Notes: generated by a model from the sequence alone, not told the origin. Shown: positions 13,039 to 62,096, numbered from the stretch's first letter. The stretch is 64,000 nucleotides of DNA from Thermoanaerobaculia bacterium (GCA_963809425.1 CAWEJK010000002.1:193254-257253), one strand, 5' to 3'. A program made the numbers and translations.

Positions 13039-14006
13039 GCGAGAGCGGCGCGTCCGCGTCCGGGTTCGATGCCGAAGACGTCGGCGTCCAGCTCGCGCGC
13101 GCCGGCGAGGTCGCCGACAGGCGCGAGGTCGGCCTCTGGCTCGTCGGAGGCGCCCTGCGCGACCTCCTCCTCGGGCGGCCGCTGCGTGACGTGGATCTGG
13201 CCGTCGAGGCGGCAGCGGCGAACGCGCTGGAGCTCGCGGCACGCCTCGGCGCCCTGCCCGGATGGGCGCTCGAAAAGACGCACGTTCGTTTCGGAACCGC
13301 GACCCTCCGGGCGCCGGGCGGACTTCGCGTGGACGTCGCGTCGACCAGGCGGGAGGAATATCCGGCGGCGGCCAGCTTGCCGGTCGTGACCGGCACGACG
13401 ACGATCGAGGAGGATCTCGGCCGCCGGGACTTCACGATTCATGCGATGGCGCGGCGGGTCGCACGCCGGGGCCTCGTCGGGCGCGTGCTCGATCCCTTCG
13501 GAGGACGCGAGGACCTCGCGGCGAAGAAGCTCCGCCTCCTCCATGCGAAATCCCTCGTCGACGACCCGACGCGCGCGTACCGCGCGGTGACGTACGCGGC
13601 ACGGCTCGGGTTCGCGTGGGACGAGGAGTTCCACAAAGCTCTGAAGGCGGCTCGGCGCGCACGAGCATTTCAGGCGCTTTCGGGGGACCGAATGAGGAGG
13701 GGAATAGAAGAGATTTTCTTAGAAAGTGAATGGGAGCGGGCGGTCCGCCTCGCGAGTGACCTCTCGTTGTTTGGCGACACCCTTCCGGGCTGGACGGGCC
13801 CCCTCTTACCTTCTAAGAAAATTCCGGCTGAGTTGATGGCTTCGGCACTCGTCGACGCATCACGTACCGTGGATGTGCGGCTGAAACCGGAAGAAATCTG
13901 GCGTCGGCTGCTCGAGCCGCTGCCGCCGCCCGAGCGCGCCGCCGTCGCGTCACGATTGAACTTCCCGAAGGCCCTGAGGCGTGCCGCGGAGGTGGAACCT
14001 CGATGA
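13035..14006 (+). CDS. tRNA nucleotidyltransferase / poly(A) polymerase family protein (CCA-adding-enzyme-like)
   Basis: GTG 13035 overlaps the dnaE stop. Contains LVGGALRDLLLGRPLRDVDLAV and RRDFTIHAM head-domain motifs. Carries an in-frame copy of the repeat element. Confidence 0.8.
   Translation: MSESGASASGFDAEDVGVQLARAGEVADRREVGLWLVGGALRDLLLGRPLRDVDLAVEAAAANALELAARLGALPGWALEKTHVRFGTATLRAPGGLRVDVASTRREEYPAAASLPVVTGTTTIEEDLGRRDFTIHAMARRVARRGLVGRVLDPFGGREDLAAKKLRLLHAKSLVDDPTRAYRAVTYAARLGFAWDEEFHKALKAARRARAFQALSGDRMRRGIEEIFLESEWERAVRLASDLSLFGDTLPGWTGPLLPSKKIPAELMASALVDASRTVDVRLKPEEIWRRLLEPLPPPERAAVASRLNFPKALRRAAEVEPR
13712..13824. repeat. Low-GC inverted-repeat element copy, in frame inside the CCA-like CDS
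   Basis: F arm GATTTTCTTAGAAAGTGAATGGG (13712-13734) and R arm CCCTCTTACCTTCTAAGAAAATTC (13801-13824). Near-identical to the arms at 16579 and 19220. Confidence 0.75.
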
Positions 14007-14760: not shown

Positions 14761-15330
14761 GTGTTGCGCGTCACGGGCGGCGCGTGGCGCGGACGGAAGC
14801 TCGAGGTTCCCGAGGGCATCCGCCCGACGACCGAGCTCGCACGCAAGGCGGCGTTCGACATTCTCGGACCGGCGATCAGGGGCGCGCGCGTGCTCGACGC
14901 GTGCGCGGGCTCGGGAGCGTACGGTCTCGAAGCGCTCTCGCGAGGCGCGGCGCACGCAACATTCGTCGAGTCTGACCGGCAGGTTGTGAGAATCTTGAGG
15001 GGGAATGTGGAACGTCTCGGTGCGGGGGAGCGGGCTCTCGTCGAAGAGACGTTCGTGGCCCGTTTTTCTTCGATGGGTGAAGAGAGCGGGAGGCCCGCGC
15101 CGGCGTCGAGGCGTCCCTCGTTCGACGTGGTGTTCCACGATCCCCCTTTCAAGGAAATCTCCGAACCCGACCTTCAGCTTCTCTTGCCTCTCGTGCGAGC
15201 CGGGGGCTGGTTGATCCACGAGCGAGGAGACGACGAGGTCCATCGGCCGATGGGGCTGGCGCCCGCCGACCGCCGCCGCTACGGCAGGACCCGCTTCCTC
15301 ATCTTCCGCCCCGGATTTTCCGCCCCGTGA
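14761..15330 (+). CDS. rsmD: 16S rRNA (guanine966-N2)-methyltransferase
   Basis: [51 protein letters not shown] and [10 protein letters not shown] motifs. Confidence 0.88.
15062..15162. repeat. Element-like arm pair inside rsmD
   Basis: F arm GTTTTTCTTCGATGGGTGAAGAGAGCGGG (compare 44861 ATTTTCTTCGAATGGTGAAGAGAGATCGGG). R arm CCCCCTTTCAAGGAAATCTCC (compare 16664). Confidence 0.5.
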
Positions 15331-16558: not shown

Positions 16559-16750
16559 AGAAAAAGGATTCGGATTAGGATTTCTTAGAAGGTGAATAGG
16601 GCTGGGGTCACGCCTCCGCCCGAAGCACCGCCGGCCCGGAGTGCGACGGCGCCTTGGATCTTTACCCTTTCTAAGAAATCTCCTTTCCCTCTTCCTCTTC
16701 CTCTTCCTTTCCTCTTTCTCTTCTTCCTCTTCTCTGTCTTCTGTTTTCCA
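16559..16750. repeat. Low-GC inverted-repeat element, canonical intergenic copy plus a 70-nt CT tract
   Basis: F arm GATTTCTTAGAAGGTGAATAGGG (16579-16601). GC-rich core. R arm CCCTTTCTAAGAAATC (16665-16680). Polypyrimidine run at 16681-16750. Confidence 0.85.
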
Positions 16751-16773
16751 TCTATCAATTCTGCGCGCAGTTA

Positions 16774-16801
16774 ATATCACTCTTACGTGATGTCATGATA
16801 T
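16774..16801. promoter_or_regulatory. Candidate operator for the ArsR-type regulator: ATATCAC-N6-GTGATGT and ATATCA...TGATAT inverted repeats
   Basis: ttaATATCACtcttacGTGATgtcaTGATATaaa sits directly upstream of the regulator start (GTG 16811). TATAAA lies 6 nt before the start codon. Confidence 0.4.
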
Positions 16802-16803
16802 AA

Positions 16804-19116
<2,313 letters not shown>

Positions 19117-19266
19117 GAGAACTACCGAGAGGAAGAGAAGAGGAAGATCTTCTTAGAAGGTAATAGGTCCGGGGAGCGCGGCCGTCGCATCGAGGCGCGG
19201 CCGCGACGCCTTGAACGGGCACCTTCTAAGAAATCTTTCTTCTCTTTTCTTTCTAAAGAAATCCCG
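19117..19266. repeat. Low-GC inverted-repeat element, canonical copy between convergent ahcY and lptFG
   Basis: GA-rich tract plus F arm GATCTTCTTAGAAGGTAATAGG (19146-19167). GC core. R arm CACCTTCTAAGAAATC (19220-19235) plus CT-rich tract. Extra half arm TTTCTAAAGAAATCC. Confidence 0.85.
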
Positions 19267-19275
19267 GTCCCTCTC

Positions 19276-21650: not shown

Positions 21651-21713
21651 GTTAAATTCTAGAGACCAGTCGCCTGAAAACATAAGGTGGGAGTCAAGGG
21701 AGGGTCCGCCGGG

Positions 21714-21791
21714 GATTTCTTGGAAAGGAAGAAAGAAAGAGGAAAGACTCCCTCTTGATTCTCTTTCTTTCTAAGAGGTCTTCTTCTTCGC
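21714..21791. repeat. Short core-less variant of the inverted-repeat element, overlapping the parB stop
   Basis: GATTTCTTGGAAAGGAAGAAAGAAAGAGGAAAGA / TCTCTTTCTTTCTAAGAGGTCTTCTTC. The parB TAG stop (21771-21773) lies in the R arm. Confidence 0.6.
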
Positions 21792-24083: not shown

Positions 24084-24240
24084 TTTCTTAGAATGGTTTA
24101 TAGAAGATTTTCGCGGCCCGAAATGAGCTCGGGACTCGAGTCCGAGACACCCATCCGAACGACATTCGAAGAAATCCCCTCTTCGGTCTTCTCCTCGATC
24201 TTTTCTTCGGTCTTTTTCTCGGTCCTGCCCTGTCTTCTTC
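24084..24240. repeat. Low-GC inverted-repeat element copy forming the 3-prime end of the miaB ORF
   Basis: F arm TTTCTTAGAATGGTTTATAGAAG. Core has a perfect GGACTCGAGTCC palindrome. R arm CATTCGAAGAAATCCCC (24163-24179). CT-rich tract runs to about 24240. Confidence 0.75.
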
Positions 24241-25583: not shown

Positions 25584-25697
25584 GGAGAAAGAGAAGAATC
25601 GGGGGCGAGGCCGCGAGTCGCGCCGGAACGCCGCCCAGCGACGAGACGCGCAACACCTTCTAAGAAATCCTCGGCCTCATATCTTCTATCTTGGCTC
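25584..25697. repeat. Inverted-repeat element copy with degenerate left arm, between miaB start and upstream gene stop
   Basis: GGAGAAAGAGAAGAATCGGGGG ... GC core ... CACCTTCTAAGAAATCC (25654-25670) ... ATCTTCTATC. Confidence 0.6.
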
Positions 25698-39015: not shown

Positions 39016-39056
39016 GAAGAGGAAGAGAAAGAGATTCTTAGAATGGAAGAGATCGG
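39016..39056. repeat. Solo F arm of the inverted-repeat element, containing the methyltransferase start codon
   Basis: GAAGAGGAAGAGAAAGAGATTCTTAGAATGGAAGAGATCGG. Compare 24084 and 44861. Confidence 0.65.
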
Positions 39057-43587: not shown

Positions 43588-44240
43588 ACGCGCGCCCTCG
43601 GCTTCTGATCGGGGGTCTCCTCGGGCACGTCTTCGTCCGCGGGGTCGTTCCGCACCGTCGGCTCGTCGGCATCCACGAAACGCTTCTCCGCGGGCTCCCA
43701 GCGCCAGCGGCGCGTCGGGTCCAGCCCGAGGTCCGGCGTGATGATGAGGAGCGAGCGCTCGATCGTGAGGTCGCCCGCGCCGAGAGAGATCGCGCGCTCG
43801 ACCCAGATCGGAGTCTGGAACGTGCCGTCCCCCGCGCCGAAGAACACGGCCACGTGGAACCACGGGCCGCCGGATCCCTTTCCCACGAAGGCCTGCGCGA
43901 AGTCCAGCCGGCCGTCGCCGTCGAGATCCCCGCGAACGAAGAACGGGTGATAACCCCCGTAGACCTCTTCGAGGTCGCGGCGCTCGTCCGACTCCGCCGC
44001 GTCGCCGTCCTCGGCGGCCCGCACCGCAAGCCCGTCTTTCGCGAAGGTCTCGAGCGCGTGCTCGACGGCGAGCCGCTCGACGCTCGTCCGGCCCGACGCG
44101 TCGAGACCCCGCGCTTCGGCGCTCGACGCCTTCATCGCGGGCTTCGCCGGCTTCGGAGCCGGCTTCGACAGAAGGAAGGCGGCGGCGGTCGCGCCGGCGA
44201 CCGCGAGGGCCGAGAGGACGTAGCGAATGCGCACGCTCAC
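43584..44240 (-). CDS. Hypothetical exported protein with FG-GAP/VCBS-like Ca-binding motif
   Basis: GTG 44240 (GTGA overlap with the udg stop). Signal-like IRYVLSALAVAGATAAAFLL, and GDLDGDGRLDFAQ. Confidence 0.55.
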   Translation of the reverse strand: MSVRIRYVLSALAVAGATAAAFLLSKPAPKPAKPAMKASSAEARGLDASGRTSVERLAVEHALETFAKDGLAVRAAEDGDAAESDERRDLEEVYGGYHPFFVRGDLDGDGRLDFAQAFVGKGSGGPWFHVAVFFGAGDGTFQTPIWVERAISLGAGDLTIERSLLIITPDLGLDPTRRWRWEPAEKRFVDADEPTVRNDPADEDVPEETPDQKPRARV

Positions 44241-45070
44241 GGCTGCTTCCCCTTCCGCGCCGGCGCGTCGATCCCGAGCCGCGCGAGCACCGCGAGCAGA
44301 TCCTCCCACGCGTCCTTTTTCTGGGCGGGCTGGCGGAGGAGGTACGACGGGTGAAGAGTCGGCATCACGGGGATGCCTCGATAGCTCCCCCATTTGCCGC
44401 GGAGGCGCGTGATGCCCTCTTCGGTTTCCAGCAGGAAGTGCGCGGCGAATTTGCCGAGCGCGACGAGCACCTCCGGCTTCACGAGATCGATCTGCCTTTC
44501 GAGGTAGCCGCGGCAGGCGGCGATCTCGTCGGGCTCCGGATTCCGGTTCTCGGGCGGACGGCACTTCAGGACGTTCGCGATGTAGACGGACGAGCGCGGC
44601 AGCCCCATGCCGTCCTCGATCATCCGCGTGAGAAGCTGGCCGGCGCGCCCTACGAACGGGACGCCCTGCGCGTCCTCGTCGGCCCCCGGAGCCTCGCCGA
44701 TGAACATGATCCTGGCGCTGGACGAGCCGTCCGCGAACACCGTCTGCTTGCGGGTTTTGCACAGCCGGCATGTGACGCAGGAAGAGACTTCTTTTGCTAA
44801 AGACTGCAGCTCCAGGGCCGAAGCGCGTCGAGCGGAAGGCGAAGCGGCGGGAGACGGCGCATTTTCTTCGAATGGTGAAGAGAGATCGGGAAGCGCCGGC
44901 GCCGCAGGGGACGCGCCTGCGGGCTTGCCCGCCGCCCTATTAACCTTCAAAGAAATCTTCTCTTTCTCTTCGAACCTTGCATCAAGGTAAAGCTCCGCCA
45001 CGCCGAGGTCGCGATAGTAGGCGAGGGTTTCCCGAAGCGCGTCGGAGCCGGGGGGCCGCGCGGGGGTCAC
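44237..45070 (-). CDS. Uracil-DNA glycosylase, family 4, with N-terminal extension containing a repeat element
   Basis: CRLCKTRKQTVFADGS...IMFIGEAPGADEDAQGVPFVGRAGQLL...HPSYLLR. Confidence 0.88.
   Translation of the reverse strand: MTPARPPGSDALRETLAYYRDLGVAELYLDARFEEKEKISLKVNRAAGKPAGASPAAPALPDLSSPFEENAPSPAASPSARRASALELQSLAKEVSSCVTCRLCKTRKQTVFADGSSSARIMFIGEAPGADEDAQGVPFVGRAGQLLTRMIEDGMGLPRSSVYIANVLKCRPPENRNPEPDEIAACRGYLERQIDLVKPEVLVALGKFAAHFLLETEEGITRLRGKWGSYRGIPVMPTLHPSYLLRQPAQKKDAWEDLLAVLARLGIDAPARKGKQP
44861..44972. repeat. Low-GC inverted-repeat element copy, in frame inside the udg N-terminal region
   Basis: F arm ATTTTCTTCGAATGGTGAAGAGAGATCGGG (44861-44890). GC core. R arm CCCTATTAACCTTCAAAGAAATCTTCTCTTTCTCTTCG (44935-44972). 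Confidence 0.8.
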
Positions 45071-45965: not shown

Positions 45966-46842
45966 TCATTCGACGTTCTGGACCTGTTCCTTGAATGCTT
46001 CGAGATCGGATTTCAGGTCGAGGACGATCCGTGTGGCGCCCGTTTCCCGGACCTTGGATCCCGAGGTATTCACCTCGCGGTGAATCTCCTGCACGAGATG
46101 GTCGAGGCGGCGGCCGACGGGCCCACCAGCGGCGAGAAGGCGCCGCAGCTCGACGAGGTGCGTCTTGAGGCGGTCGATCTCTTCGGTGATGTCGGCGCGA
46201 TCGGCGAGGAGGGCGACCTCCTGGACGAGCCGGGCCTCGTCGAGCGCCACCCCCGCCGCCAGCTTCGCGATGCGCTCGCGAAGGGCGACGGCTATGCGCT
46301 CGGAGATGCCCGTCCGAGCCACGTCGAGCGACGCCACCCCTTTGTCGATTCGCTCCAGGATTTCTTTGAAGGTGAGAGAGAGAGCGGCCCCCTCGCGCGC
46401 CCGTGCGGCGTCGAAGTCCTGGAGCGCCTGTTCGACGAGCGAGACAAGAGACTCCTCGAATGTGGTATCGGGCGCGGCGCCGGCGTCGTCCGTCGCACGC
46501 ACGACCCCCGGCAGCGCGAGAAGGTCCCTTGCGGAGAGATCCGCCGGTAATCCCCTTTTCGAAGAATCCTCTCTCCATTCCCTCGCGTAATTTTCCGCCG
46601 CTTCCATGTCGATGCGGGCCGTTCCCGAGGCGCCCGCGGGCTCGCGTGGTCCGGATCAGGACGTCGACGTGCCCGCGCGCCACGACCTTCCCCACGGCCC
46701 GGCGGACGGCCGGCTCCGAGGCGGCGTATTCGTCGCGCAGCTTGATGGCCACGTCGAGGAATCGGTGGTTCACGCCGCGGATGACGACCGAGACGTCCGT
46801 CCCGTCGGGAAGTGTCGCCGCCGCGCGGCCGAATCCGGTCAT
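45966..46842 (-). CDS. YicC-family stress-induced protein, frame broken between 46610 and 46655
   Basis: N-terminus MTGFGRAAATLPDGTDVSVVIRGVNHRFLDVAIKL is in the frame of listed ORF 45952..48933. The C-terminal DUF1732 part (ITEEIDRLKTHL...EIHREVNTSGSK) is in listed ORF 45966..46607. Length 877 nt = 3n+1. Confidence 0.8.
46358..46582. repeat. Element-like F and R arms inside yicC (wide spacing)
   Basis: GGATTTCTTTGAAGGTGAGAGAGAGAGCGG (46358-46387) and CCCCTTTTCGAAGAATCCTCTCTCCATTCCC (46552-46582). Confidence 0.45.
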
Positions 46843-56890: not shown

Positions 56891-56928
56891 GGAGAAGAGG
56901 GGATTTCTTAGAAGGTGAAGAGAGGCGA
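56891..56928. repeat. Solo F arm of the inverted-repeat element, filling the trpS-scpA spacer
   Basis: GGAGAAGAGGGGATTTCTTAGAAGGTGAAGAGAGGCGA. Confidence 0.7.
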
Positions 56929-58628: not shown

Positions 58629-60800
58629 TCAGTCTCCGGCCGGAAGATCGGCGGCGCGGAGAAGGAGGGGCGTGCGGAAGGGAGCGTCCGCGTTCCCCGC
58701 GAGGAGCCGCGAGGCTTCGTCGCGGGCGCGCTTCATCCAGGCGACGTCGCGGACGAGATCGCCCACGCGGAAGAGCGGCACCCCGCTCTGGCGCGTGCCG
58801 AGCGCGTCGCCGGGGCCCCGGCGCTTGAGGTCTTCCTCGGCCACCACGAATCCGTCGTCCGTCTTCTCGAGAACGGCAAGCCGCTCGCGCGCTTCGGGCG
58901 ACGCCTTCGTGCCGAACAGAAGCACGCAGCGCGAGGTCCGTTTCCCGCGCCCGACGCGTCCCCTGAGCTGATGGAGCTGGGCGAGGCCGAAGCGCTCGGC
59001 ATTCTCGATCAGCATGTAGGAGGCGTTCGGCACGTCGACGCCGACCTCGATGACGGTCGTCGCCGCGAGGACGTCGAGCCTGCCGGCCGCGAACTCCGCC
59101 ATCGTCCGCTCGCGCTCCTCGGGGGGAATACGGCCATGCACGACGCCGACACGTCTTCCGGGCAGGGCCCGGCGGACCTCCTCCACGTGCTTTTCGACCG
59201 CGCGCGCCTCGATCTTGTCCGACTCCTCTATGAGGGGGACGACGACGTAAGCCTGGCCCCCGGCCCGGATCTCGGCCTCGATCTCCCGGAACGCGCCGCC
59301 ACGCTCGGCCTCGGGGAGCACGCGCGTCGCGACGGGCGTCCTCCCCGGCGGTTTTTCGTCGAGCGTCGAGACGTCGAGGTCCCCGTAGAGCGTGAGCGCA
59401 AGAGAGCGCGGAATCGGCGTCGCGGACATCACGAGGAGGTGCGGCTTCTGGCCGGCCGTGTCGGCCCCGTCGGCTCTCACGGCCTTCGCCGAGAGCGCCG
59501 TGCGCTGGGCGACCCCGAAGCGGTGCTGCTCGTCTATGACGATGAGCCCGAGCCGCAGGAACTCCACGGGCTCCTCCAGGAGCGCGTGCGTTCCGACCAG
59601 CAGGTTGACGCGGCCGCCCGCGAGCTGGTCGAGGAGCGCGGCGCGGGCCTTCCCTTTGACGCGGCCCGTGAGTAGCGCGGGCACGAGCCCGGACTTCGCG
59701 AGCAGGCGGAAGATCGTCGCCGCGTGCTGCTCGGCGAGGATCTCCGTCGGCGCCATGAGGGCGGTCTGGTACCCGCATGCGGCGGCAAGGACGGCCGAGA
59801 GCACCGCGACGATCGTCTTGCCGCTCCCGACGTCGCCCTGGAGGAGGCGCCGCATGGGCGTGCCGCGCCGGAAGTCCTCGCCGATCTCGCGGATCACCCG
59901 CTTCTGCGCTCCGGTCAGCGCGAACGGGAGGAGAGCCTTGAGCCGCGCGCGGATGGCGTCGTCGGCGGCGAGGAGAGGAGCTGGATCGGCGGCGCGCGCG
60001 CGGCGCCGCCGTTGAAGGCCGACCTGGAACTCGAGGAACTCCTCGTAAACGAGTCGATGGAGATGGGGCGAGGTCCGCGAAGTCCAGGGCTCCGCGTCGG
60101 CCGTGCCGCCCGCACTGCCCGGGAAATGCGCCTCTCGCAGGGATTCGGAAAGAGACGGCAGCTTCGGACCCTCGCCTTTCCGGTCGTGGATGCGTTCCGG
60201 GAGACGGTCTGCAAAGTTTCTTAGAAGGTGATTGACGACTCGCCTCCGCATCCGCGGTGTGAGTCCGGGAAGCTTGCGGTAGATCGGCACGACCCGGCCG
60301 ACGGAGAGGGGATCCGTTCCGTCGAGCGAGCCGGCGCCGCCGCCCGCCCCTCCTCCCTCTTTCTCTTCACCTTCCAAGAATTCTTCTATCTGCGGGTTCT
60401 CCATGACGAGCCCGCGCCGATAGCGCGCGGCCTGTGTCGCCATTCCGTAGACCCAGAAGATCTTCTTCGGGACCATCCACCGCTGGAGGTATGGCTGGTT
60501 GAAGAAGACGAGGCGGAGAGAGCCCGAGCCGTCGTCGAGGATCGCCTCGAAGATCGTGAAGCCGCGGCGCCGCGTGCGAATGAGGCGCGCGGACAGGACC
60601 TCCCCTTTCACGGTGGTCGCCGGCCCCTCGGGCACGAGAGCCGAGATCGGCGCGATGCGCGTGCGGTCCTCGTAGCGGAACGGGAGGTGGAGGAGGAGAT
60701 CGAGCGCCGTCTCGACTCCGGCCTCGGCCAGCTCCTTCGCGCGCGCGGGGCCGACGCCCGGCAGCGTGGCAAGCGACGGGAGCGGCGGCGGCGGGAGGAT
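58629..60800 (-). CDS. recG: ATP-dependent DNA helicase RecG (start codon unresolved)
   Basis: LQGDVGSGKT, VIDEQHRFG and QLHQLRGRVGRG motifs. The conserved N-terminus LPGVGPARAKELAEAGVETALDLLLHLPFRYEDRT is encoded in frame upstream of the listed GTG 60635, but with no ATG/GTG/TTG. ATC 60800 or CTG is a candidate start. Confidence 0.9.
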   Translation of the reverse strand: MLPPPPLPSLATLPGVGPARAKELAEAGVETALDLLLHLPFRYEDRTRIAPISALVPEGPATTVKGEVLSARLIRTRRRGFTIFEAILDDGSGSLRLVFFNQPYLQRWMVPKKIFWVYGMATQAARYRRGLVMENPQIEEFLEGEEKEGGGAGGGAGSLDGTDPLSVGRVVPIYRKLPGLTPRMRRRVVNHLLRNFADRLPERIHDRKGEGPKLPSLSESLREAHFPGSAGGTADAEPWTSRTSPHLHRLVYEEFLEFQVGLQRRRRARAADPAPLLAADDAIRARLKALLPFALTGAQKRVIREIGEDFRRGTPMRRLLQGDVGSGKTIVAVLSAVLAAACGYQTALMAPTEILAEQHAATIFRLLAKSGLVPALLTGRVKGKARAALLDQLAGGRVNLLVGTHALLEEPVEFLRLGLIVIDEQHRFGVAQRTALSAKAVRADGADTAGQKPHLLVMSATPIPRSLALTLYGDLDVSTLDEKPPGRTPVATRVLPEAERGGAFREIEAEIRAGGQAYVVVPLIEESDKIEARAVEKHVEEVRRALPGRRVGVVHGRIPPEERERTMAEFAAGRLDVLAATTVIEVGVDVPNASYMLIENAERFGLAQLHQLRGRVGRGKRTSRCVLLFGTKASPEARERLAVLEKTDDGFVVAEEDLKRRGPGDALGTRQSGVPLFRVGDLVRDVAWMKRARDEASRLLAGNADAPFRTPLLLRAADLPAGD
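60216..60390. repeat. Element-like F and R arms inside recG (wedge/linker region)
   Basis: GTTTCTTAGAAGGTGATTG (60216-60234) and CCCTCTTTCTCTTCACCTTCCAAGAATTCTTCTATC (60355-60390). Confidence 0.5.
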
Positions 60801-61689: not shown

Positions 61690-62096
61690 GTGACTCGGGC
61701 CGGACGATAAGCCGGATTCTGTAACCGGTCGGCTCGCGCCTTCCGGCCGGCGGTCATTCCTCCAGGCCCGGCCTTTCGGACGGGCTCGAGCGACCGACCC
61801 GGTGACGTCGGCCGTGAAGCCGCGAGGGCGGGCGCCCCTTCCATCACCCTATTTGGTCTTGCTCCGCGTGGGGTTTCGCCTGCCGGTCCCGTTGCCGGAA
61901 CCGCGGTGCGCTCTTACCGCACCTTTTCACCCTTACCTGCGCCTCGCGGCGCGTCGGCGGTATGTTTTCTGTGCCACTTTCCTTCGGGTTACCCCGACCG
62001 GAATTTCTCCGGCACGCTGCCCGCGGGAGTCCGGACTTTCCTCCCCTCCTTCCGCCGAAGCGTCGAGAGCGGCGACCGCCTGTCCGGCCCGAGTCG
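61690..62096 (-). ncRNA. rnpB: RNase P RNA, bacterial type A
   Basis: Reverse strand contains GGAGGGGAGGAAAGTCCGGAC, GGCACAGAAAACATACCGCC, GGTAAGGGTGAAAAGGTGCGGTAAGAGCGCACCGC and ACAGAATCCGGCTTATCG. P1 pairing is ACTCGGGCCGGAC with GTCCGGCCCGAGT. Ends are approximate to within +/-5 nt. Confidence 0.93.

Follow-up and report, generated by a model that had tools for sequence, protein, structure and literature searches.

REPINs are doublets of REP sequences that form hairpins and are mobilized by RAYTs (Bertels & Rainey 2011, PMC3116915). Their excision yields an asymmetric product in which a few terminal bases of the right end persist (PMC3116915). Rickettsia palindromic elements (RPEs; Ogata et al. 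2000) are reviewed in PMC10969869 together with other intragenic MITEs such as ERIC, BOX and Correia elements. DNA uptake sequences are represented by the USS of Pasteurellaceae and the DUS of Neisseriaceae (Findlay & Redfield 2009, PMC2817400). Here we compare these systems with a family of paired repeat arms, one copy of which is part of a protein-coding gene.

The DNA analyzed is a window of 64,000 nucleotides with a GC content of 69%, and all positions given here are counted from its first letter. The names given to homologs of its UDG and AhcY assign it to Thermoanaerobaculia (Acidobacteriota), a poorly studied and mostly uncultured class. The repeat copy at 44861-44972 lies inside a minus-strand gene for a family-4 uracil-DNA glycosylase (UDG). 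The gene starts with a GTG 8 nt past the rpoZ stop codon, and the same rpoZ-UDG spacing is found in orthologous loci. Hallmarks of family-4 enzymes are present in the host protein, namely the UDG fold, the CxxC motif of the 4Fe-4S cysteine cluster and GEAPGADED, which contains the GEAPG motif. The match to PF03167 covers residues 114-258, and the alignment with PDB 1ui0 (Thermus UDGA) begins at residue 88 and places the start of the fold about 10 residues ahead of CxxC. Upstream of the element, the N-terminal motif MTPARPPGSDALRETLAYYRDLGVAELYL is nearly invariant among 36 orthologs and is also matched in distant Acidobacteriota, other classes included.

The original prediction, that the UDG reading frame contains a complete arm-spacer-arm copy whose translation product links the N-terminal motif to the family-4 fold, was borne out. 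The 277-residue frame contains ...RFEEKEKISLKVNRAAGKPAGASPAAPALPDLSSPFEENAP..., in agreement with the segment quoted earlier, and residues 33-70 are encoded by four successive pieces: a purine-rich tract, arm 1, a 52-nt GC-rich spacer and arm 2 (Table 1). On the plus strand, 44944-44957 reads CCTTCAAAGAAATC, which has one mismatch to the 14-mer CCTTCTAAGAAATC. In the gene frame the consensus TCT TAG AAG of arm 1 appears as TCT TTG AAG, so the predicted change of TAG to TTG is confirmed by the sequence and by its gene-frame reading. A second removed stop, which had been missed, is found in arm 2, where the consensus TTC TAA GAA appears as TTC GAA GAA.

Table 1. Positions of the UDG gene, its parts and the repeat arms in the 64,000-nucleotide window.
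Feature	Position	Strand	Remarks
Arm pair in cca/poly(A) polymerase-family gene	13713..13822	+	38.4 and 30.7 bits; flanks native coding sequence, no insertion
Arm pair, 21 nt past metK stop	16579..16680	.	Arms as in the consensus, stops retained; a long CT-rich tract follows
Arm pair between convergent ahcY and lptFG	19146..19266	.	With a third arm-like site; near-perfect hairpin, absent from relatives
Short degenerate arm pair, lptFG start to parB stop	21710..21784	.	One arm without TAG
Arm pair at miaB 3' end	24084..24176	.	Reading frame enters the pair (TAG to TCG) and stops within it
Solo arm upstream of miaB	25648..25669	.	33.7 bits
Intergenic arm	39028..39054	+	The methyltransferase gene at 39043 takes its ATG from ...AGAATGG of this arm
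Family-4 uracil-DNA glycosylase gene	44237..45070	-	277 aa; PF03167 E = 1.7e-39; PDB 1ui0 E = 4.5e-50
UDG catalytic fold, aa 88-258	44297..44809	-	Includes CxxC at 44768-44779
UDG arm 2 (R type in gene orientation), CTCTTCACCATTCGAAGAAAAT	44862..44883	-	Read SSPFEEN; 15.1 bits here, 21-26 in orthologs
UDG GC-rich spacer	44884..44935	-	Read as Ala/Gly/Pro-rich segment; no kinship to spacers of other copies
UDG arm 1 (L type), GATTTCTTTGAAGGTTAATAGG	44936..44957	-	Read ISLKVNR; weight-matrix score 33.2 bits
UDG purine-rich outer tract	44958..44974	-	Read FEEKEK; intergenic copies have the same GA-rich or CT-rich flanks
Conserved N-terminal motif of UDG, aa 1-29, ...LRETLAYYRDLGVAELYL	44984..45070	-	Predicted helix aa 11-21 (AlphaFold)
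Arm in yicC	46359..46380	-	Read LTFKEIL; 24.6 bits; length-neutral replacement of ancestral AALEAIL
Solo arm between trpS stop and scpA start	56902..56923	.	37.7 bits
Two arms in recG	60211..60387	-	Read EEFLEGEE and NHLLRNF; 30.7 and 28.5 bits

The repeat family is real and lies far above chance. It consists of AT-rich inverted arms of about 22 nt, with the consensus GATTTCTTAGAAGGTGAATAGG, around a non-conserved GC-rich spacer. With up to two mismatches allowed, the 14-mer was found 12 times in the window while 0.12 occurrences are expected. A weight matrix trained on nine intergenic arms only gives 19 sites of at least 15 bits in the window; in 496 kb of arm-free high-GC DNA its maximum is 16.7 bits, with no site reaching 18 bits. 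Agreement with the consensus arm is 21 of 22 positions for copies in the UDG orthologs. All three frames of the consensus L arm are interrupted by a stop, and the R arm contains one stop. Arms occur on both strands at a density of about 0.3 per kb, and counts of the 9-nt TTCTTAGAA are 11 per 64 kb here, 1 per 21 kb in L143 and 2 per 42 kb in L144 and L148 combined. A short core motif, TTCGAAGG, is shared with arm-free genomes and is not over-represented there.

At least five pairs are formed by the inverted ~22-nt arms, which in this respect resemble the terminal inverted repeats of MITEs. A classical MITE was nevertheless rejected, given that the internal sequence is not common to different copies: among 10 non-orthologous spacers none of the 45 pairs beat shuffled controls. 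Since the spacers of non-orthologous copies are unrelated, the conserved unit is the arm or arm pair and not a MITE-like whole, and the earlier description of the element as a unit with a shared core did not hold up. Nor are the spacers generally palindromic, only 3 of 17 folding better than their shuffles (z below -2). Neither the UDG copy nor the intergenic copies show a visible target-site duplication; they are old, and their flanks are low-complexity purine or pyrimidine tracts. The 64-kb window showed neither a transposase nor a RAYT gene. At Rfam gathering thresholds only RNase P was found in the window and no family corresponds to the element. In scans of viral contigs the two-arm pattern gave no matches and the single arm only random AT-rich ones. 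The idea of an inverton with the arms as invertase sites is unsupported, all orthologous spacers aligning in one orientation, and fixed-phase bridging by a protein was also rejected, as the spacing of 68-88 bp centre to centre shows no helical register.

Intergenic doublets sit just 3' of metK, ahcY, parB and miaB, flanked by purine-rich and pyrimidine-rich tracts. They fold via their arms as long hairpins, which a simple terminator scan misses; the one between ahcY and lptFG has a value of -55.2 kcal/mol (z = -6.5). The pair behind metK is absent from L143, L144 and L145 and partly present in L146, and the metK-arsR spacer measures 253 bp here and 246 bp in L146 versus 42-82 bp in the other three. 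For the ahcY-lptFG spacer the corresponding figures are 160 bp here versus -4 to 45 bp in relatives. Close relatives thus differ in the presence of intergenic copies, and the difference amounts to about 150-190 bp of additional sequence. Of the ahcY-lptFG spacer, L144 keeps only the outer tracts and ...AAATC, which is the last ~5 bp of the right arm. When the orthologous intergenic pairs of the window and L146 are compared, the R arm is identical at 16 of 16 positions and the spacer at about 70%. Inverted doublets with short conserved ends, a less conserved spacer and a predicted hairpin are also what characterizes REPINs.

Arms were also detected within other coding genes. In cca, EEIFLESEW aligns with EKILEEKNP of the Thermotoga protein (PDB 3h37) and with DEVLGEDDF of an arm-free genome. 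Exactly 28 residues separate the RR and PGW motifs in arm-bearing and arm-free proteins alike, and the arms flank a universally conserved helix-loop segment of unchanged length. The yicC gene product has ALSLTFEEIL where every outgroup has AL.AALEAIL, at the same length and with five nucleotide changes, all of them towards the motif; this arm scores 25-29 bits in all relatives. When recG is compared with arm-free relatives, NHLLRNF is found for ASLLDAV and QIEEFLEGEE for SYELEETDD, a difference of at most 2 residues. All six testable coding arms, two each in cca, yicC and recG, are therefore length-neutral or nearly length-neutral replacements of native sequence, which indicates that the family has a non-insertional route into genes. 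Arms that look as if they came with extra DNA are restricted to UDG and to the miaB tail, which is a C-terminal extension. Of all the leads in this study, the as yet unexplained route of arms into native coding sequence is the most interesting.

These findings bear on the in-frame stops. The original prediction listed seven arm stops converted to sense codons and held that intergenic copies keep theirs. All seven codons are at the places given, but the count mixes three classes. True conversions are those in UDG (TTG) and in the miaB tail (TCG); the codons in cca (TGG at 13731) and yicC (AAA and TCG) belong to native sequence; and those in rsmD (TCG at 15070 and AAG at 15151) are chance resemblances. 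Reading cca and yicC as inserted copies with converted stops is not tenable, as this is native coding sequence into which no stop ever came as part of a unit. The supposed rsmD arms score at most 13.3 bits, which is not above chance, and the one at 15151 lies within the catalytic DPPF motif. The left yicC arm that had been proposed (46554-46568) is likewise indistinguishable from chance.

Intergenic copies do keep their stops in 10 of 11 arms, the exception being the arm at 21710, which reads TTGGAA. The central TAG or TAA is also kept in three of four coding arms that are out of frame, versus none of four that are in frame (Fisher p = 0.004). Loss of in-frame stops from intact genes is partly a tautology. 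The statistic is informative because the out-of-frame coding arms and the intergenic arms serve as a control.

Conservation of the arms is also apparent at the nucleotide level. Among 12 UDG orthologs with a full doublet, synonymous codon identity is 0.82 in arm 1 and 0.87 in arm 2, whereas the spacer has 0.51 and the remainder of the gene 0.67; among six-codon windows, arm 2 ranks above the 95th and below the 99th percentile. Codons ending in A or T make up 49% of the UDG arms versus 14.7% of the rest of the gene, and 6 of the 10 conserved AT-ending codon columns are within the arms. Rare AT-ending codons are likewise retained at the arm site of yicC across orthologs. A covariation analysis of the 12 UDG doublets found no compensatory changes, the arm stem being kept only through conservation of the arms, and an RNA-structure constraint on the spacer is therefore unsupported. 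The arms themselves may be held by a DNA- or RNA-level constraint in addition to the reading frame.

Whether the UDG doublet arrived as an inserted unit is, in our judgment, an evenly balanced question. In such an event, a REPIN- or MITE-like hairpin module of ~117 nt (purine tract, arm, spacer and arm) would have inserted into a permissive linker, where it could be tolerated because the linker has no fold. Linkers are 25-34 residues long in the nearest arm-free orthologs (P0116/L147, P0119 and P0118) versus 68-82 residues in the arm-bearing clade, and what remains when the module is missing (the L081 type) is 28 residues, the outgroup length. This gain in length and the remainder of outgroup size favor unit insertion, as do the purine tract found with arm 1, the presence and absence of intergenic copies and the footprint-like allele of L144. 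The gain is suggestive and not decisive because more distant outgroups have linkers as long as the arm-bearing ones (51 residues in L113 and 73 in P0100) which are also rich in Ala, Pro and Gly. The claim that a ~37-residue segment was inserted is thus not proven, with outgroup linkers ranging from 25 to 73 residues and being unalignable, and with replacements at all six testable coding arms elsewhere. The intermediate state of an insertion is unexplained, because a consensus copy would bring two in-frame stops. The unrelated spacers of non-orthologous copies are also unexpected if whole units are copied.

A serious alternative, to which we give somewhat less than even credence, is that the arms were written into an existing long and unconstrained UDG linker by length-neutral substitution, as in cca, yicC and recG, so that the "core" is native linker. 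Such substitution could result from selection for a motif that acts in cis at the DNA or RNA level, or from a molecular drive similar to that of USS and DUS, and USS are known to spread likewise in coding regions (PMC2817400). The conserved native segment of unchanged length between the cca arms, the changes towards the motif in yicC and the NHLLRNF replacement in recG are direct precedents; arms in these three genes score 24-38 bits with a matrix derived from intergenic arms only, and orthologs retain rare AT-ending codons at the arm sites, yet point mutation would have had to assemble a rather long motif of ~22 nt. In the linker itself, distant outgroups match the "core" in length and Ala/Pro/Gly-richness, whereas the net gain of ~40 residues over the nearest arm-free orthologs coincides with the arms, and arm 1 is accompanied by the purine-rich outer tract as in the intergenic modules. 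Unrelated spacers, arm pairs directly 3' of genes and ~0.3 arms per kb on both strands fit substitution in place, but among close relatives the intergenic copies vary, with 150-190 bp of additional sequence and with alleles that resemble footprints. The strong differences in arm density among close relatives are also unexpected for a shared uptake specificity.

The later history of the UDG copy is clearer than its origin. In a neighbor-joining tree of catalytic-domain DNA, full doublets are present in every subclade of the arm-bearing group. Nested among them are alleles with arm 1 only, with arm 2 only, with both arms and no spacer (L102), with duplicated arms (L099, P0095 and P0241) and with neither arm (L081). 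The TTG of arm 1 and the GAA of arm 2 are common to all orthologous copies. Full doublets in all subclades, the nesting of partial alleles and the universal TTG and GAA point to a single old acquisition. The simplest reading of these sequences is that the ancestor of a Thermoanaerobaculia subclade acquired the doublet once in its UDG linker and that it was then inherited vertically. Both in-frame stops (TAG to TTG and TAA to GAA) would have been lost before the clade radiated, and the linker would have decayed later through in-frame deletions and duplications.

In a more distant clade, L269 (62% identity), R-type arms are found in the UDG linker and a full doublet in the 187-bp rpoZ-UDG spacer, with the UDG start codon falling within an L-type arm. 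In L145/L147, the nearest genome of the arm-free type (AhcY 83% identical), 42 kb of sequence contain no arms, and the UDG linker is short and likewise devoid of them. The original prediction would have been refuted by finding the segment in the UDG of a genome lacking the element, and in this nearest case it is absent. Among the matches listed from a contig scan with the UDG alignment, relatives appear only at 60% identity or below. At least 1.2 Mb of distant loci contain no arms.

The UDG copy is read as part of the protein and serves as a disordered linker. More than 25 orthologous DNA loci, recovered independently of gene calls, have linkers of differing lengths that are 100% in frame. AlphaFold with the ortholog alignment predicts a helix at residues 11-21, a confident UDG fold and a pLDDT below 50 for residues 28-73; this is the stretch encoded by the element, hence its assignment as disordered linker. 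We consider it very improbable that the element is untranslated, with UDG starting within or after it, at the arm 1 TTG or at a restart codon, and the upstream frame open by accident of GC-rich DNA. Between the element and CxxC there is no in-frame ATG, GTG or TTG, except for the TTG inside arm 1. This TTG, preceded by a purine-rich tract, could serve as a start codon, the gene as called in one database entry (P0090) begins within arm 1, and in clade L269 the start ATG is the one located in an L-type arm. However, the N-terminal 29 residues are conserved as protein well outside the clade, the frame is preserved across many independent indels and the start lies 8 nt after rpoZ at all close loci. 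That an AT-rich patch of the UDG linker resembles the genomic repeat by chance can safely be dismissed: arm 2 in the window scores only 15.1 bits, but arm 1 reaches 33.2 bits against the null maximum of 16.7 bits in 496 kb, the two arms have the canonical inverted arrangement and spacing, and the arms of orthologs are nearer to the consensus than those of the window.

In its architecture, the family looks most like a REPIN-type doublet. The ends of REPINs are ~71-110 bp apart, comparable to the 68-88 bp centre-to-centre spacing here; a single-stranded DNA or RNA hairpin is predicted; doublets and singlets both occur; and copies are found mostly just outside genes and are confined to one clade. 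The L144 allele may be likened to the asymmetric footprint of REPIN excision (PMC3116915). There are also clear differences. REPINs are extragenic, while these arms are also found in the coding sequence of UDG, cca, yicC, recG and miaB. Each REP is a palindrome, while these arms hold only the 9-nt near-palindrome TTCTTAGAA (TTCT-T-AGAA), and they do not carry the GTAG or CGTC tag as defined in PMC3733652. Spacers are not just less conserved but unrelated between copies, and no RAYT was seen within the window.

An in-frame repeat translated as a linker is a known kind of event. Like an RPE, the UDG copy is present in frame in a conserved gene whose function appears, from its sequence, to be retained. 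In the terms used in the review PMC10969869 for RPEs and other intragenic MITEs, it is a palindromic repeat of ~100-150 bp in frame in a conserved housekeeping gene, translated as an extra surface or linker segment compatible with function. The RPE consensus has an open frame and RPE copies are similar over their full length, whereas here the L-arm consensus is stopped in all three frames and similarity is limited to the arms. The other coding arms described here differ from RPEs in being length-neutral. A profile of the encoded peptide, searched against 1.84 billion representatives, matched only UDG clusters and two unrelated repeat proteins, with no other carrier family. The UDG copy provides a clean and phylogenetically resolved case outside Rickettsia of repeat DNA joining a housekeeping protein, one which displays acquisition, stop removal and later decay by in-frame deletion and duplication.

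With USS and DUS the arms have in common that they are a clade-specific, over-represented motif, that they occur on either strand with less than one copy per kb and that they form inverted pairs 3' of genes. As with USS and DUS, they enter coding regions by substitution and not by insertion, occupying residues under weaker constraint and reading frames free of stops. In contrast, the motif is much longer at ~22 nt, the intergenic pairs are 46-63 nt apart and come with extra DNA, and density varies strongly between close relatives. In three or more other conserved genes, native helices have been replaced by the same arms without a change in length, and the rare AT-ending codons of these arms are retained clade-wide. 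This is not a transposition pattern and suggests a selected cis-acting motif or a drive such as biased DNA uptake. As a speculative and rather doubtful extension, the ~22-nt arms may represent a functional or driven genomic signature motif of this Thermoanaerobaculia subclade, one that enters native coding sequence in a length-neutral manner (in cca, yicC, recG and possibly UDG) and is then preserved as nucleotide sequence despite strong GC3 pressure. It could be due to a molecular drive similar to that of uptake sequences, or to selection for a site in DNA or RNA that acts in cis and functions in the form of inverted pairs. If true, such a signature motif would be the first system of this kind described in Acidobacteriota and far longer than known uptake sequences.

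Arms of the family occur within the conserved native coding sequence of three genes, cca, yicC and recG (Table). Relative to arm-free relatives and PDB homologues, the length of the encoded proteins is unchanged or nearly so. Patches of ~18-25 nt in these genes appear to have been rewritten toward the arm consensus with AT-ending codons that are otherwise rare, a pattern for which transposition offers no explanation.

Family arms in native coding sequence (weight matrix trained on intergenic arms only) and the structured RNA of the window
Feature	Position	Strand	Score
Arms in cca	13713-13822		24-38 bits (range for the three genes)
Arm in yicC	46359-46380		as above
Arms in recG	60211-60387		as above
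RNase P RNA class A, bacterial	61692-62091	-	266.9 bits (Rfam)

In recG of this genome, an extra Gly/Ala-rich stretch of ~16 aa (KEGGGAGGGAGSLDGT, 60270-60330) lies beside an L-type arm. Since this stretch is shorter or missing in close relatives, a low-complexity expansion adjoins the arm. A surplus base in ACCACGCGAGCCCGCGGGC (46632-46650), where the expected protein reads ...RTTRPAGA..., divides yicC over two frames; YicC is intact in relatives (290-294 aa). Either the assembly is wrong at this point or the gene has recently become a pseudogene.

The linker of the family-4 uracil-DNA glycosylase (UDG) is a hot spot of in-frame duplication, besides deletion. Peptides of arm 1 and/or arm 2 are found in tandem duplication in some orthologues (P0241, P0095 and L099), for example as EISANVNR...KISLKGNR and FTFEEN...SPFEEN. 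A second AT-ending codon patch, TCT TTA GCA AAA GAA, was observed in the codons for LQSLAKEV (44795-44815), directly before the Cys cluster and not within the annotated arms, and is kept across orthologues.

Arms were also detected at start codons. The ATG of the methyltransferase gene at 39043 is provided by an arm variant ...TTCTTAGAATGG (39028-39054), the purine-rich outer tract of which is positioned like a ribosome-binding site. In parallel, the UDG of L269, a locus from a more distant clade in which this protein is 62% identical, has its ATG inside an L-type arm, TTCTTCGAATGGTGAGAAGG (L269 1590-1625), and a remodelled N-terminus, MVRRADPV.... The rpoZ-UDG spacer of this locus (L269 1430-1616) measures 187 bp vs 8 bp and carries two L-type arms in direct orientation with ~85 nt between them.

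No Rfam family besides RNase P RNA class A was detected in the window. An operator-like palindrome, TATCAC...N...GTGATA (16745-16805), conserved in relatives as TGTATCAC...GTGATACA, lies directly upstream of an ArsR-HTH/SAM-methyltransferase fusion gene located between metK and ahcY.

In L144, another relative, the ahcY-lptFG spacer (19117-19275 in the window) holds only GAGAGGAAGAGAAAGAGG-AAATC-TTTCTCTTC (L144 11345-11390), which corresponds to the outer purine/pyrimidine tracts together with the terminal bases of the right arm. This sequence may represent a footprint left by excision of the REPIN (REP doublet hairpin) type or, alternatively, a hairpin that was present before insertion.
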